Below, piece by piece: positions 1,648 through 34,250 of a stretch of 64,000 bases of DNA. Position 1 is the first letter of the stretch. Every line of letters begins with the position of its first letter. The translations under genes and the position numbers were made by a program. Under the pieces are notes generated by a model. That model made no database searches, was not told the DNA's origin, and saw nothing but the letters and a program-made list of their open reading frames with translations. Where the stretch lies: the IMG/VR virus record IMGVR_UViG_3300044970_001685, one strand, 5' to 3'. The stretch comes from a virus.

Positions 1648-1759
1648 ACGTAAAAAAGAGAAGAATAATATTTTTCTAGAAATTCTTTATAACGTTTTAG
1701 TTCAGTTACCAGTTCTAGTGATTGGATGGATTATCACACAATTTACATCAGAAAGATAA
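1622..1759 (+). CDS. 45-aa single-TM microprotein
   Basis: MTTAPAKDKRKKEKNNIFLEILYNVLVQLPVLVIGWIITQFTSER; basic patch then TM. Confidence 0.55.
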   Translation: MTTAPAKDKRKKEKNNIFLEILYNVLVQLPVLVIGWIITQFTSER

Positions 1760-2569
1760 TCTGGCAGATAATTTTTTAGCAATTTTTTTAGCAGGGGCAA
1801 AGAGAGGTTTAAATCTTTCTTTGCCTTCTTTTGTGAACTTATCTTTGATTACATCGTCAATAATGATTTTATTATCAATCTCATAGAGAGCATTGATTTC
1901 AACTTGGTCACGAATATATTGCTCTACATTAGTTACTTGTTCTATTAAACGAGTTCCTTCGGCAGAGTATTCAAAAACATCTACATGTCCACCTTCTGCT
2001 AGGACATAATGTAGTACTGGCTTTACTTGTTTGATTTTAATCTTAAACTTATTCTTTGTTGCTTCTTTGATGATTGGTTCTGCTGCATTCTTCAAAGCAT
2101 TCAGAACAGTTGTTGATGCTATTGTAGCAGCAGTCGTTACTACTGCGACAGCACCAGCCGTAGCAACAAGAGAAGGGTCAGGTAAATTAATATCGACTCC
2201 ATAAACACTAAAAGTTGTTGGTGTTGTTGTTGGTTTGTCTGCTGGTATTTCAGCAATGGGTGTTTGAGTAGGAGGGGTTTGAGCAATCTGTGGAAGTTCA
2301 GGAGGGGGAGTAGGATCTGGAAAACCTCTACTTTTTTCTTGTTGTTCTTGTTCTTGTTTTTGTTTTTCTGCTTTTACGGCAGCATCAAATTCTTCTTGTG
2401 TTGGAACATTGATGACTGGATAATTGATTGATGGATTTGTAATATTAATAACTGGTACTTCCAATCCACGAATAAGTGGTTGTTGTGTAGTTTGAGTAAC
2501 AGGAGGTTCTATTGTAGGTATGATTCGTGGAGAATCAATTTTTACTGATTTGATTGGTTGTATTTCCAT
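1748..2569 (-). CDS. Pro/Gln-rich membrane-anchored protein (4th gene of minus-strand operon)
   Basis: Pro-rich N-half, central TM VATAGAVAVVTTAATIASTTVL, soluble C-domain; start at 2569 or 2578. Confidence 0.8.
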   Translation of the reverse strand: MEIQPIKSVKIDSPRIIPTIEPPVTQTTQQPLIRGLEVPVINITNPSINYPVINVPTQEEFDAAVKAEKQKQEQEQQEKSRGFPDPTPPPELPQIAQTPPTQTPIAEIPADKPTTTPTTFSVYGVDINLPDPSLVATAGAVAVVTTAATIASTTVLNALKNAAEPIIKEATKNKFKIKIKQVKPVLHYVLAEGGHVDVFEYSAEGTRLIEQVTNVEQYIRDQVEINALYEIDNKIIIDDVIKDKFTKEGKERFKPLFAPAKKIAKKLSARLSF

Positions 2570-3149
2570 TGACGACATCCTGTACTCGTGGATACTTCAC
2601 AACAACATCAGCACAAATTTTAAAATATGGACTTTCTGGATGGAAACTAATTCCATTTTTAATCGCTTCACCACATTTTAATAATCTTACAAGTTCAAAA
2701 TCAAGTCTTGCTTTATCTGCTTCTGCTTGTTGTCTTGCAATTTCTACTTTAGCTCTTGATTTACAGATCTCAGTAAGACTTCCATCAAGTGGGAAGTTAA
2801 ATCCCATTGAAAATCCAGCATTTCCACTATGAGATTGATATTGTGATGGATCTGCTCCCCCATTTAGACTTCCTAAAATGAAAGGAGAGAGACTCATTGT
2901 TGGACCTTGACAACTAACTCCACTACCGAAAGTATTCATGGCGTAAGGACCTTGTAACACCTGAACTGCCTGGTTTGTAACATTACCAGTGGCAGATGCC
3001 GAAGGTCCTGCTATATTTGTATTGGATGGAGCTTGTTGTGCTTTACTTCTACTCGAACCTGCAAGTGTTAATAATAGTATAGTTGCTATTGCGTAAAGAC
3101 TGATACTGAGTTTGTTGTTGAATCTTGTGTAGTGGTTCTTTCTATCCAT
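2535..3149 (-). CDS. exported protein with predicted beta-hairpin plus long amphipathic helix
   Basis: signal peptide (YAIATILLLTLAGSSRSKA-Q), GFSMGFNFPLDG strand, helix RAKVEIARQQAEADKARLDFELVRL, four Cys. Confidence 0.8.
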   Translation of the reverse strand: MDRKNHYTRFNNKLSISLYAIATILLLTLAGSSRSKAQQAPSNTNIAGPSASATGNVTNQAVQVLQGPYAMNTFGSGVSCQGPTMSLSPFILGSLNGGADPSQYQSHSGNAGFSMGFNFPLDGSLTEICKSRAKVEIARQQAEADKARLDFELVRLLKCGEAIKNGISFHPESPYFKICADVVVKYPRVQDVVNGNTTNQISKN

Positions 3150-3451
3150 GTTTCCTTAGCCACCCCAGGCCCAAGTGTTGTTTCACTGAACTGGAACGGA
3201 GCACCTTGAGTCATAACGCTATAATTAGCACCAGGCGTAGGAGTACCAGGAATATTGATATTCGTGCCTGTGACTGTATAAGATGTCCCAGTGGTATATT
3301 CTATTTGTTTAATCGTCTCAACGATTTCTGTGCGTGTCTTAGTTTCTGCTGTGATTGTTCCTCTGGTAAAATTAGGTACAACACTTTCAGCATATGCAGG
3401 AGTACAAATGACTCCCGCTGCTAAAAGCAGAACGGGAGTTATGTATCTCAT
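3086..3451 (-). CDS. secreted Thr-rich beta protein
   Basis: Sec signal MRYITPVLLLAAGVICTPAYA-E; paralogous to 3448-3912. Confidence 0.85.
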   Translation of the reverse strand: MRYITPVLLLAAGVICTPAYAESVVPNFTRGTITAETKTRTEIVETIKQIEYTTGTSYTVTGTNINIPGTPTPGANYSVMTQGAPFQFSETTLGPGVAKETWIERTTTQDSTTNSVSVFTQ

Positions 3452-3912
3452 TTGAATACACTTAATTCGATTGTTCTTTGTGCTGTTGCAGTTGTACCAG
3501 GACCACCAGCAGTTACGCTAGGAACGCCAGTTCCACTTAGAGAACCTGCAAGAGAACCTTTATCTCCTGCTAACTGAGTAGTAGAATTCCCATAAAGGTT
3601 GGGAGAAGCAATAACTCCACCAGAGACCGACTGAGTGGTGACTGCTGTATCAGCAGCGCGTTGAGTTTCTGAGAAAGTAAATGCTTGACCGTTTGTATCA
3701 ATGCCATATGAACCTGCGCCACCAACTCCACCAAGAGTAGTAACGTCAATATTTGTACCTGAAACAGAATAGGAAGCACCTACTCTTTCGGTTTGAATCG
3801 CTGCACCCTGAACACCAAGTTGAACGGAATCAGTAATTTTTGATGTAATTTCAGCAGCACCAGCAGGATTAACTAAGAATAATGTAGAAAGGACTAAAAG
3901 AACTTTCTTCAT
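3448..3912 (-). CDS. secreted Gly/Thr/Ser-rich beta protein
   Basis: Sec signal MKKVLLVLSTLFLVNPAGA-A from ATG 3912; ATGA overlap with next gene. Confidence 0.85.
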   Translation of the reverse strand: MKKVLLVLSTLFLVNPAGAAEITSKITDSVQLGVQGAAIQTERVGASYSVSGTNIDVTTLGGVGGAGSYGIDTNGQAFTFSETQRAADTAVTTQSVSGGVIASPNLYGNSTTQLAGDKGSLAGSLSGTGVPSVTAGGPGTTATAQRTIELSVFK

Positions 3913-3938
3913 TTTTCTTGAGTAATAAACACTACAAG

Positions 3939-3945
3939 TATTTAG
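3939..3945 (-). promoter_or_regulatory. T4-type late promoter (CTAAATA) for the minus-strand operon
   Basis: TATTTAG on + strand, 27 bp upstream of ATG 3912. Confidence 0.55.
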
Positions 3946-4042
3946 CACAACCATTTTTAGAAGTGGTCTACTTGACAAATCCTAAATAAAAACTTAATAT
4001 GGAAAATCCCATATCAGGGATTTTATTATGAGTCTGTGATGT

Positions 4043-4114
4043 GACATTAGAGCCGTGGAAGGTGCCCTTCGAGAGAGGTGGTGTACCCCCCTTCTATACG
4101 GATGTAGAGTTCAA
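4043..4114 (+). ncRNA. structured 5' leader of the hydrolase gene (candidate cis-regulatory RNA)
   Basis: CCGTGGAAGG...CCTTCTATACGG outer stem enclosing a GAGA-tetraloop hairpin; GC-rich island in an AT-rich intergenic region. Confidence 0.55.
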
Positions 4115-4123
4115 TTAATTTTA

Positions 4124-4756
4124 ATGCAAAACATCTTTACTGTAGCCCTGCCCCTTCTGGCATCGGTTACAACCAATATGGCAACACTGCCTGTATTTCC
4201 TCCTTTGACGGCACCACCAGCGCCATTTTCTGTTGTTAAGGAGTTTGAAACTACGACAGCGATCCGAGAGGTTGCTCCCGAAAAGCCAAAAGAGAAAAGG
4301 CTAATTTGTAAAGGGTGTTCAGAACATGAACAACTTGCCTTGGATTATTTCCAAGATCAAGGAATTAAAGACAGAAACGCCCTTGCTACTATCATGGGCA
4401 ATATTAAGCAGGAATCTATGTTCGTGCCTAATATTTGTGAAGGTGGTAGCAGGACTCAGTACCATCACTGCGGTCGTGGTTATGGACTGATCCAATGGAC
4501 ATCTGCCGATCGTTATTATGGATTGGGTGATTTTGCTAAGAAGTTTGGTGGTTCTCCATCAACACTTCCAACGCAACTTCGTTATCTGACGAATGAAGTT
4601 CAATGGAAACGAATCGAAGACCGAATGAAAACTCCTGGTAAGTCTATCGATCGCTACATGAACTATGCGTACAGTTGGATTGGTTGGGGCATTCATGGTG
4701 CTCGTACATCTTATGCTCATGAATATGCTAACCGACTGATCACGGTAGAAGTTTGA
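4124..4756 (+). CDS. lysozyme-like cell-wall hydrolase (phage tail lysozyme / lytic transglycosylase fold) with N-terminal signal
   Basis: ATIMGNIKQES (catalytic Glu helix), GYGLIQWT motif; start reassigned to ATG 4124 (MQNIFTVALPLLA). Confidence 0.85.
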   Translation: MQNIFTVALPLLASVTTNMATLPVFPPLTAPPAPFSVVKEFETTTAIREVAPEKPKEKRLICKGCSEHEQLALDYFQDQGIKDRNALATIMGNIKQESMFVPNICEGGSRTQYHHCGRGYGLIQWTSADRYYGLGDFAKKFGGSPSTLPTQLRYLTNEVQWKRIEDRMKTPGKSIDRYMNYAYSWIGWGIHGARTSYAHEYANRLITVEV

Positions 4757-5367: not shown

Positions 5368-5401
5368 TTGACTGATCCCAAAGAAAATGTTAAGATAAAT
5401 A
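5368..5401 (+). promoter_or_regulatory. overlapping sigma70 and late promoter for the porin
   Basis: TTGACT-N17-TAAGAT fused to ATAAATA 5395-5401. Confidence 0.6.
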
Positions 5402-5472
5402 CCGTGATCAATCGTGCCGCAACTACTTGCACGATTTTCACTATGTCGTTTAGTACTAAAAACAAATTTTTT

Positions 5473-6966
5473 ATGAAACTCAAACAACTGATGCTTGCAC
5501 CTGTTGCTCTGGGAATGGTTGCTCCTGTTGCTGCGAATGCCGCAGATCTGAATATGGCAGCAGTCAACCAATACTCTTCTGAGCAGGTTACAAGTGTCTC
5601 ACAACTGTCTGATGTTCAACCTTCGGATTGGGCATATCAGGCACTCAGCAACCTTGTAGAGCGTTATGGTTGCGTTGCTGGTTATCCTAACGGCACCTAT
5701 GGTGGTGGTAAGGCAATGACCCGATTTGAGGCAGCAGCACTTCTGAATGCTTGCCTTGACCGTGTAACCGAAGTTACTGATGAACTTCAACGTCTTGCAA
5801 AGGAGTTTGCTGATGAACTTGCAGTAATTCGTGGTCGTGTAGATAAACTGGAAGCAAAAGTGGGTGCTCTGGAAGCAACTCAATTCTCCACCACTACCAA
5901 ACTGAAAGGTGAAGCATCTTTCGTTCTTGGTGGTGTTGATAATGCTTGGGTTCCTGGTAAGGATGCCAGTACCAATGTAGGCAATACTGCTTTCAATTAC
6001 GATCTTCGTATCAATCTTGATACTTCTTTCACTGGAAAGGATCTTCTTCGCACTCGTCTGCGTTCTGGTAATTTCTCTTCTCAACCCTTTGGTTCCAGTT
6101 CTTCACTGTTCAAACTGGATAAGGCAGAGAGCACTGCTGATGTAGTTAAACTGGATCGTCTGTATTATAGTTTCCCTGCTCTTGCTAAGGGTGTAACTCT
6201 GACTGCTGGTGCTCTGGTTCGTAACACTGAGATGACCTGGATTCCTTCTGCTTATAAGTCGGATGTTCTGGACTTCTTCCAACTTGCTGGTGCTCCTGGT
6301 GTCTACAACAAGGCAACTGGTTCTGGTTTTGGTGCTCAATGGGTGCAAGGTAAGAAAGGTTTTGTTGCTGGTCTGAACTATGTTGCACAAGGTGGTTCTG
6401 ATTCCACCAAAGGTGAGTTTAACGAAAAAGGTGCTCTGAACACTCTTGCTCAGATTGGTTACCGTGCTCCTAATTATGGTGTTGCATTCGGTTATCGTTA
6501 TGGTACTGAAGGCACTCGTGTTCGCACCTTCAATGGTGTTCTGGGTTCTTCTGGTGCTCTTGCTCCTGGTCAAACCTCTAATGGTTATGCTCTGAGTGCT
6601 TACTGGCAACCTTCCAAGTCTGGCATCATTCCTTCTGTGAGTGGTGGTTATGGTTGGAATACTGTAAGTCTGAATGCCGAAGGTGAAGCAACTCCTAATG
6701 GCGCTACCGATTCGCAAACTTGGTACGCTGGTCTCCAGTGGTCTGATGTACTTGCTAAGGGTAATTCTGCTGGTTTTGCTATCGGTCAGCCTGGTAATGC
6801 AGAAGGACTTACTAAGGAAGCAACTATGTGGGAACTGTTCTATAAGTATCGTGTGAGCGACAACATCACTGTTACTCCTGCAGTGTTCTATGTTTCGAAC
6901 AATCAGGCACTTTCGGATACCTCTTCCAACTATGGTGGTGTAATTCAAACTACCTTCCGTTTCTGA
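5473..6966 (+). CDS. som: cyanobacterial outer-membrane porin (Som/OprB family with SLH domain)
   Basis: signal peptide, SLH motif SDVQPSDWAYQALSNLVERYGC, FSTTTKLKGE, C-terminal QTTFRF; start reassigned to 5473. Confidence 0.95.
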   Translation: MKLKQLMLAPVALGMVAPVAANAADLNMAAVNQYSSEQVTSVSQLSDVQPSDWAYQALSNLVERYGCVAGYPNGTYGGGKAMTRFEAAALLNACLDRVTEVTDELQRLAKEFADELAVIRGRVDKLEAKVGALEATQFSTTTKLKGEASFVLGGVDNAWVPGKDASTNVGNTAFNYDLRINLDTSFTGKDLLRTRLRSGNFSSQPFGSSSSLFKLDKAESTADVVKLDRLYYSFPALAKGVTLTAGALVRNTEMTWIPSAYKSDVLDFFQLAGAPGVYNKATGSGFGAQWVQGKKGFVAGLNYVAQGGSDSTKGEFNEKGALNTLAQIGYRAPNYGVAFGYRYGTEGTRVRTFNGVLGSSGALAPGQTSNGYALSAYWQPSKSGIIPSVSGGYGWNTVSLNAEGEATPNGATDSQTWYAGLQWSDVLAKGNSAGFAIGQPGNAEGLTKEATMWELFYKYRVSDNITVTPAVFYVSNNQALSDTSSNYGGVIQTTFRF

Positions 6967-33601: not shown

Positions 33602-33688
33602 ATGACTTCACTTTTGTTTACAATAACATCCGTTGCCTTCTTTGTTTTGTTGGCACATTCAATAAATCAACTTTCAGAAACTTACTAA
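33602..33688 (+). CDS. 28-aa single-TM microprotein
   Basis: MTSLLFTITSVAFFVLLAHSINQLSETY fills the hli-petF gap. Confidence 0.55.
   Translation: MTSLLFTITSVAFFVLLAHSINQLSETY

Positions 33689-34250
<562 letters not shown>

Follow-up and report, generated by a model that had tools for sequence, protein, structure and literature searches.

Here we analyse four overlapping genes, referred to as g1 to g4, on the minus strand of a 64,000-nucleotide stretch of viral DNA (IMG/VR record IMGVR_UViG_3300044970_001685; the whole stretch is called ‘the window’ from here on). The window derives from a T4-like cyanomyovirus, its nearest relatives by nucleotide similarity being the freshwater/estuarine Synechococcus phages DSL-LC02, DSL-LC03 and S-H38. 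An earlier note on this DNA had read the four genes as an operon behind a late promoter, laid out in the manner of curli/Fap systems and directed at the cell envelope. Our analysis supports a real late operon of exported and membrane proteins, with chance excluded by the hundreds of homologues found for each of the four families, and it leaves envelope assembly standing as an interpretation; the curli/Fap layout and a fixed place for g4 in the operon are not supported. The module is real and abundant, and it matches no known system.

Gene layout, promoter and timing

Reading along the minus strand, we see that the genes are tightly packed (Table 1): g1 and g2 share an ATGA at their junction, g2 and g3 overlap by 64 nucleotides (nt), with an AAGGAA preceding the ATG of g3, and g3 and g4 overlap by a further 44 nt. 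We take the ATG at 3912 as the start of g1, discarding a TTG at 3978; for g4 an alternative start at M4 (2569) would give a protein of 273 amino acids (aa), and an AGGA is better spaced there. The GC content of the phage cassette region is ~0.39. Among open reading frames (ORFs) of at least 110 aa, all other convincing genes in the window lie on the plus strand, the four being its sole convincing minus-strand genes of this size, as the earlier note had it. A second minus-strand candidate at 33674–34126 (150 aa) was discounted, being only the antisense shadow of the petF ferredoxin gene (33692–33982, plus strand); petF itself is located between small hli-like ORFs.

Table 1. Positions of the cassette genes, the promoter box and neighbouring genes in the window (TM, transmembrane helix)
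Feature	Position	Strand	Remarks
g1	3448-3912	minus	154 aa, ORF read
g2	3086-3451	minus	121 aa, ORF read
g3	2535-3149	minus	204 aa, ORF read
g4	1748-2578	minus	276 aa, ORF read
Late-type promoter box CTAAATA	3939-3945	minus	26 nt upstream of g1 ATG, sequence read
DUF6450 two-TM gene, 3' end	3-176	plus	gene extends beyond window edge; family of P-SSP7 gp43
Staphylococcal-nuclease-like gene	810-1223	plus	PF00565, phrog_452; CTAAATA box upstream; between DUF6450 gene and module
Lysozyme-like gene	4055-4756	plus	Phage_lysozyme2 PF18013, E 1e-15; hydrophobic N-terminus; divergent from module
SLH + OprB porin gene, host-type	5368-6966	plus	1.4 kb from module

The promoter box upstream of g1 belongs to a pattern kept across relatives: (A/C)TAAATA is found between positions −52 and −13 in 63 of 69 related phage loci, as against 2 of 69 for a control stretch, and is absent from all three host loci described below. 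Boxes of the CTAAATA type also precede tail-fibre-like genes in the window. The overlaps and the conserved box thus bear out the arrangement first proposed, and the motif would be expected to act late; this is backed by RNA-seq of phage P-HM2 infecting Prochlorococcus MED4, where, among the clusters defined in the light, the g1 homologue (PHM2_197) belongs to late cluster E, as do baseplate genes, the g2 and g4-like genes to late cluster D, and the g3 gene to middle cluster C (Thompson 2016, PMC5082946, Table S2).

By sequence, g1 to g4 are the catalogued, uncharacterised clusters T4-GC 237, 236, 235 and 234 (gp167–164 of phage Syn9), with counterparts in the T7-like cyanophage P-SSP7 as gp44, gp45 and gp42. 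A literature search by gene name returned no paper on the cassette genes, the relevant papers being found via the gene-cluster numbers. In the gene-cluster file none of T4-GC 234–237 is flagged as ‘structural’, and the proteomics summary of S-SM1, Syn9 and S-PM2 virions does not include T4-GC 235 or 236 (Sullivan 2010, PMC3037559); the families of all four genes are unlisted among the virion proteins of published proteomes, in keeping with the non-virion status that had been supposed for them. A late promoter and transcription alongside structural genes would suit virion or virion-assembly proteins that merely resemble exported ones, an explanation we regard as extremely improbable given the lack of a structural flag in that compilation, the conserved cleavable signals and invariant cysteines of periplasmic type, the existence of copies on host chromosomes (all described below) and the finding that solved phage structures hold no relatives.

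The four proteins

The products of g1, g2 and g3 each begin with a Sec-type signal: the N-terminus is basic, a hydrophobic core follows, and at the end stands a site of AxA type (AGA↓AE, AYA↓ES and SKA↓QQ, respectively) that is retained among homologues in all three family alignments. Judged from these sequences, the three proteins are probably exported via Sec with cleavage of the signal, as had been proposed for g1 and g2. The first two are paralogues, the relationship noticed at the outset being confirmed both by BLASTP (E 5e-7) and by profile-profile comparison (probability 97.2%, E 4e-11). Both are Thr/Ser/Gly-rich and share a conserved ...SVF(K/TQ) terminal strand: g1 is rich in Gly/Thr/Ser/Ala and ends in ...ELSVFK; g2 contains 22% Thr and ends in ...SVSVFTQ.

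The g2 family is Pfam DUF6322 (PF19847; E 9.5e-13, 49 bits against a gathering cut-off of 30.6) and also phrog_650, with equivalents in T4-GC 236, Syn9 gp166 and P-SSP7 gp44 and homologues in 360 phage records. The g1 protein falls below Pfam detection for DUF6322, its relation to g2 being visible at the profile level; it belongs to phrog_564 (E 3e-28; T4-GC 237, Syn9 gp167), has homologues in 285 phage records, some of them labelled ‘OMP1 protein’, and is the fastest-evolving member of the cassette. Across the trio of exported proteins, the PHROG matches have E values of 3e-28, 1e-27 and 2e-54.

AlphaFold2 monomer models were made for g2 and g3. That of g2 (pLDDT 79.6) places strands at residues 30–53 and 96–120, with a short inner hairpin, and so describes a very long beta-hairpin sheet of two ~24-residue strands in which both faces are polar. 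Foldseek and VIA-align give it weak fold matches only (E at least 0.006 in Foldseek; Z no higher than 4.3), every one of them a long hairpin of a kind that occurs solely as part of an oligomeric barrel or ring: the stems of the anthrax PA, CDTb, aerolysin and lysenin pores, the tail knob of phi29/P68, and the rings of FliF and SpoIIIAG. The predicted 24-residue hairpin of g2 is like these in shape; g2 and g3 differ from them in being much smaller and without homologous domains, and the scores lie at noise level.

The g3 family (phrog_848/1755; T4-GC 235, Syn9 gp165, P-SSP7 gp45) is found in 456 phage records, including those of T7-like cyanophages, and in 311 clusters at 50% identity (1.84 billion proteins searched). 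Across 58 diverse homologues four cysteines are invariant (C80, C129, C159 and C179) and the AxA site of the signal is kept; a motif TG(N/S)VTNQAVQ, present as TGNVTNQAVQ in the window copy, is also conserved. We infer that the cysteines form disulfides in the periplasm. In the AlphaFold2 model of g3 (pLDDT 75.7), strands at 84–96 and 106–118 form a hairpin of 13+13 residues, behind which a 42-residue helix runs from 123 to 164, in agreement with the original description of an exported protein with a beta-hairpin and a long helix. The strands of the hairpin show an alternating hydrophobic/polar pattern, ~11 residues per strand, that is conserved over the same 58 homologues, and insertions of 0–80 aa found in g3 homologues sit precisely at the hairpin tip.

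No significant structural relative was found for the g3 model by Foldseek or VIA-align. The top Foldseek rows are TolC chains (E at least 0.18), whose hairpin-then-long-helix shape is similar; the values (E 0.18–1.2, TM 0.1–0.25) are at noise level, TolC is unlisted in the VIA-align results, and there is no match to the Pfam OEP family. From these elements a pore or conduit can be imagined, in which g3 would oligomerise by way of its amphipathic hairpin into an outer-membrane barrel with a helical periplasmic collar (a ‘half-TolC’) and the hairpins of g1 and g2 would span the thick peptidoglycan. Such a conduit would let solutes or proteins be taken up or released, an auxiliary role like that of the nearby SLH-OprB porin. 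The conserved alternation in the g3 strands, the insertions at their tip, the non-significant TolC rows, the resemblance of the g2 model to the stems of pore-forming barrels and the presence of a porin gene in the phage itself all point this way. We nevertheless consider it improbable: the fold matches of both proteins (E at least 0.18 for g3 and at least 0.006 for g2; Z at most 4.3) fall below significance, a C-terminal beta-signal is absent, and both faces of the g2 hairpin are polar. The outer-membrane channel that the earlier note saw in g3 is possible at most, since its amphipathic hairpin could equally pack its hydrophobic face on the protein's own helix.

The fourth protein, g4, is as first described, a Pro-rich protein with one TM helix and a soluble tail: it contains 10% Pro and has a Pro-rich N-terminal arm, a hydrophobic helix at ~136–160 and a tail of ~115 aa. 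The arm carries a conserved motif, YPVINVPTQEEF, with the family pattern YP-x-I-x-VPT-x-EEF. The C-terminal flank of the helix is strongly basic and Lys-rich, so that by the positive-inside rule the protein is probably N-out, C-in, with its C-terminal side in the cytoplasm. In hhalign comparisons g4 matches the core of P-SSP7 gp42 (97.5%, E 6e-12) and CYOG_00027 of phage 9515-10a (93.5%); it is the equivalent of T4-GC 234, its match to Syn9 gp164 being weak (54%), and the family alignment (A5) also takes in a protein from the host island.

Turning to known systems, Pfam, NCBIfam, PADLOC and PHROGs provide no functional name for any of g1 to g4, DUF6322 (g2) being the only family label; sequence-profile searches of the PDB with four family profiles (A1, A3, A4 for g1 and A5 for g4) gave no meaningful relative, and the ESM Atlas returned for g3 and g4 only viral ‘hypothetical’ clusters, without structures. 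A curli/Fap-like amyloid, with g1 and g2 as fibre subunits secreted through g3 and nucleated on the surface, would account for two small paralogous secreted beta subunits, major and minor, followed by exported accessory proteins; a Thr/Ser/Gly/Asn/Gln-rich beta-hairpin could stack in register, and the terminal strand motifs are conserved. The resemblance stops there. Pfam holds no curli or Fap match at E ≤0.1 for g1, g3 or g4 (Curlin_rpt, CsgG, CsgE/F and Fap families), and g2 is DUF6322 only; internal imperfect repeats are absent; CsgG does not occur among the fold-search matches listed; no lipobox Cys was found after the g3 signal, so that g3 is not a lipoprotein channel; and at 204 aa, with a single predicted hairpin, it is unlike CsgG or the ~400-aa beta-barrel FapF in both size and predicted fold. 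With no similarity in sequence and no significant fold match, the curli/Fap layout is not supported, and we hold an amyloid of this kind to be very unlikely.

Relatives in cyanophages and on host chromosomes

Among phages, the family profiles A1 and A3 match Syn9, P-SSM2, P-HM2 and P-SSP7 with E values from 1e-32 to 5e-78. The order g1-g2-g3 is collinear wherever these genes are present (106 related loci), and g4 is linked in ~76 of the 106, on the same strand in ~58 and on the other strand within 3 kb in ~18. A four-gene operon is thus what we see in the window, where g4 shares the strand of the trio; it is not the general rule, g4 lying opposite in those ~18 of 76 loci, in Syn9, in P-HM2 and in the host island. 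In Syn9, gp165, gp166 and gp167 occupy the strand opposite to their neighbours, as in the window, and in P-HM2 the genes PHM2_197–194 are annotated as T4-GC 237–234, with T4-GC 234 as a convergent g4-like neighbour. More widely, T4-GC 234–237 have coordinates in most of 16 cyanomyovirus genomes, T4-GC 234 being on either strand (Sullivan 2010, PMC3037559). Compared with this set and that of P-SSP7, the window has the same gene order, overlaps, late box and placement of the trio on the strand opposite to its neighbours; it differs in having g4 on the same strand, within the operon, and in that the module stands next to lysozyme and porin genes rather than between regA and hsp20.

In P-SSP7, gp42 resembles the core of g4, gp44 is g2-like and gp45 g3-like, with gp43, a two-TM protein of the DUF6450 family, interrupting the series; here and in 9515-10a the module is located between the tail-fibre genes and that for the small terminase subunit (terS). 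Most myovirus loci likewise have a DUF6450 gene in linkage with the module. S-PM2 and Syn5 are without g2 and g3 in a profile search, so the module is widespread, not universal. Saying this, the synteny that had been suggested as a check is clearly seen, the four families co-occurring in T4-like cyanophages, in T7-like ones and in host islands.

The 9515-10a record (NC_016657) contains an unannotated 123-aa DUF6322 ORF with a signal peptide (locus L003, 3109–3480). The record calls a 313-aa ‘gp165’ (CYOG_00025), the 5' third of which overlaps this ORF in a different frame; the true start of the g3-like gene is probably downstream of the annotated one. Matches to metagenome-assembled genomes (MAGs) of Flavobacteria, Euryarchaeota and SAR406 had hinted at a wide host range; these show full phage gene order and were set aside as mis-binned cyanophage contigs.

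What is new here is that freshwater picocyanobacterial chromosomes carry g1–g3 in a low-GC island. Scanning one genome per prokaryotic species, with a narrow alignment as query, we found the module in three freshwater picocyanobacterial MAGs, on contigs that are chromosomal, with ndhA/ndhG, hrcA and trpB as neighbours. All three contigs hold g1–g3; a convergent g4 is present on two, the third contig stopping at g3. The island has a GC content of 0.55 against a background of 0.65–0.70, and its junction is the same in all three MAGs. Host g2 and g3 evolve with a dN/dS of 0.02–0.07 at a dS above 1 (saturated), indicating strong purifying selection; identity between the host copies is 84–88% for g2 and g3 and has dropped to 48% for g1. 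DUF6450 was not found in the three host genomes, and there is no lysozyme beside the island.

When we searched 301 genomes from the family of these MAGs with a profile, 16 proved to have g3-like genes (one of them, G001, carrying one of the islands just described); two of the matches are located on single large contigs, at 1.9 and 2.6 Mb. We inspected two islands of marine Synechococcus, both of low GC: G170:C1 2556000–2575000 (L138) and G113:C1 50000–68000 (L139). In each the g3-like gene keeps the four cysteines and stands among 6–10 signal-peptide proteins rich in Ser/Thr/Gly/Asn, including small Cys-rich proteins and tandem duplicated 392-aa proteins, none with a Pfam family; in G170, giant proteins of surface type (>1,200 aa) border the island. 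That host relatives of g3 sit among secreted Ser/Thr-rich proteins in cell-surface islands lends weight to the surface context proposed in the earlier note. Homology of the divergent neighbours in these marine islands to g1 or g2 was undetectable in two single-sequence profile comparisons; in two other genomes, G303 and G147, a whole-genome profile search gave a weak DUF6322-like match, at distances of 2.5 kb and 12 kb from that of g3 type.

In a tree of g3, the divergent genes of hosts fall into deep clades that lie outside every phage sequence, and the freshwater host copies are positioned beside those of freshwater myoviruses, with support of 42/53. As this support is low and a single host clade is not rejected by the approximately unbiased (AU) test (p 0.39), we make no claim as to the direction of transfer. 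One of the 16 genomes deserves separate mention: in a 1.2-Mb picocyanobacterial genome (G076:C5, ~71.8–73.3 kb), a g4-like gene, g2 and g3 lie on one strand in podovirus order, on a contig that exceeds a T7-like cyanophage genome in length. The DNA looks like that of a phage, perhaps a T7-like cyanophage that was inserted or co-assembled.

A proposed envelope assembly, its rivals and the neighbouring genes

Since the cassette is late, exported and not packaged, we take it to act on the cell envelope, and the surface remodelling or non-canonical lysis suggested in the earlier note still makes the best class of explanation. Within this class we favour a constructive role, the assembly of an envelope or surface structure, with a probability of about 0.4. 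It is the most likely activity because living hosts constrain g2 and g3 where no DUF6450 was found and no lysozyme stands beside the island; hosts that retain these two genes must therefore gain something non-lethal from the module.

In outline, a T4-type late promoter would drive the operon from mid or late infection, as the conserved motif and the P-HM2 RNA-seq suggest. The g1, g2 and g3 proteins would exit the cytoplasm via Sec and have their signal peptides cleaved, and g4, on the strength of its charge distribution, would enter the inner membrane so that the Pro-rich arm at its N-terminus faces the periplasm. Once outside, g1 and g2 might build a barrel, ring or fibre by polymerisation or joint assembly (the shape of g1 being assumed like that of g2 from their paralogy), with disulfide-bonded g3 serving as an assembly or anchoring factor of the outer membrane or periplasm and g4 as a putative inner-membrane tether; the assembled product would stay outside the virion. 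As to what the phage would gain, we can offer speculation: a cell surface altered over the long late period, our lead guess being that it blocks further adsorption or superinfection, or the loss of progeny on debris, or alternatively a tethering of the envelope.

Several points weigh against this interpretation. In T7-like cyanophages the module occupies the position of the T7 lysis genes, beside a holin-like two-TM protein, and in the freshwater clade the cassette stands back-to-back with a lysozyme gene. The PADLOC models for anti-phage defence and exclusion gave no match at E ≤0.01, and lytic phages usually express their known superinfection-exclusion genes early rather than late. The pTM of the g2 and g3 models is low (0.35–0.45), and monomers cannot reveal oligomers. 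Lastly, function may have diverged between the phage versions and those of the hosts.

The first two of these points belong equally to the idea that the cassette substitutes for spanins, with g3 and g4, together with g1 and g2, bridging the periplasm and breaching the outer membrane after the holin-like DUF6450 protein and an endolysin. Like the spanins of lambda (Rz/Rz1), T7 (gp18.5/18.7) and T4 (PseT.3/PseT.2), the genes are late, overlapping and non-virion, their products exported, with one partner in the inner membrane; spanins likewise employ periplasmic helices and disulfides, matching the predicted helix and the cysteines of g3. The location in P-SSP7 and 9515-10a, with tail-fibre genes to one side, terS to the other and DUF6450 adjacent, the linkage to DUF6450 in myovirus loci as well, and the back-to-back lysozyme-like gene in the clade of the window fit this picture. 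Moreover, P-SSP7, P-SSM2, Syn9 and 17 other picocyanophages are listed as spanin-less (Kongari 2018, PMC6139136).

Against a spanin substitute, the weightiest point is that provided by the host chromosomes, which constrain g2 and g3 with no linked lysis cassette, DUF6450 not having been found in those genomes nor a lysozyme beside the island; to this may be added the deep host clades of g3 in cell-surface islands and the lack of g2 and g3 in S-PM2 and Syn5. There is no candidate for the o-spanin lipoprotein, an L-x-x-C lipobox at the cleavage site being present in none of g1 to g4, and g2 homologues are entirely without Cys. Nor do we see the type-II topology of an i-spanin (N-in/C-out, with a periplasmic coiled coil): the signal of g3 is AxA-cleavable and not a membrane anchor, and g4 has its TM helix mid-protein with the basic side C-terminal. 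Furthermore, the cassette adds two subunits with long beta-hairpins that have no spanin counterpart, and g1 evolves fast, like an exposed component. We accordingly favour constructive assembly over a substitute for spanins, which we judge to be unlikely, if still a credible contender.

Stated at its boldest, and held tentatively, the proposal is of an undescribed envelope machine common to picocyanobacteria and to their T4- and T7-like phages, in which Sec-exported DUF6322 hairpin subunits would polymerise with g3 and the g4 tether into a structure at the surface or across the envelope. Deployed late in infection, such a machine would serve either to screen the surface of the infected cell or to open the outer membrane where spanins are lacking. 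Of the cyanophage genes that lack an assigned function, in marine and freshwater phages alike, those of the cassette are some of the most widespread, with ~1,300 protein clusters at 90% identity; they are common to two unrelated phage families and their hosts, so pointing to gene flow between them, and their target is the envelope of cells that perform a large share of ocean photosynthesis. Two questions are thereby made testable: how the outer-membrane step of lysis is carried out in spanin-less picocyanophages, and whether lytic cyanophages remodel the surface of their hosts. For the hosts, the island copies point to an undescribed picocyanobacterial cell-surface structure, of which g1 may be the outermost component because of its fast evolution, as expected in a phage-host arms race.

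Of the genes around the cassette (Table 1), the truncated ORF at the window edge agrees with the C-terminal tails of full-length DUF6450 genes in related loci, these relatives matching PF20048 with E values from 1e-35 to 8e-17. The linked DUF6450 gene has DUF6450 as its only Pfam family and ‘unknown function’ in PHROGs; it matches P-SSP7 gp43 in size and topology, is holin-like in these two respects only, and accompanies the module as a conserved neighbour in the two phage families alike. On the other side, a lysozyme-like gene in the same divergent position occurs in ~15 related loci, all of the freshwater clade, and is not adjacent to the module in Syn9, P-HM2 or P-SSP7. A candidate promoter for it, the sigma70-like TTGACA-17-TAATAT, lies at 3972–4000 and is followed by a conserved hairpin, AAAATCCC..GGGATTTT. 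Together with the porin gene beyond it, the lysozyme-like gene forms a local cluster of envelope-directed genes beside the module.

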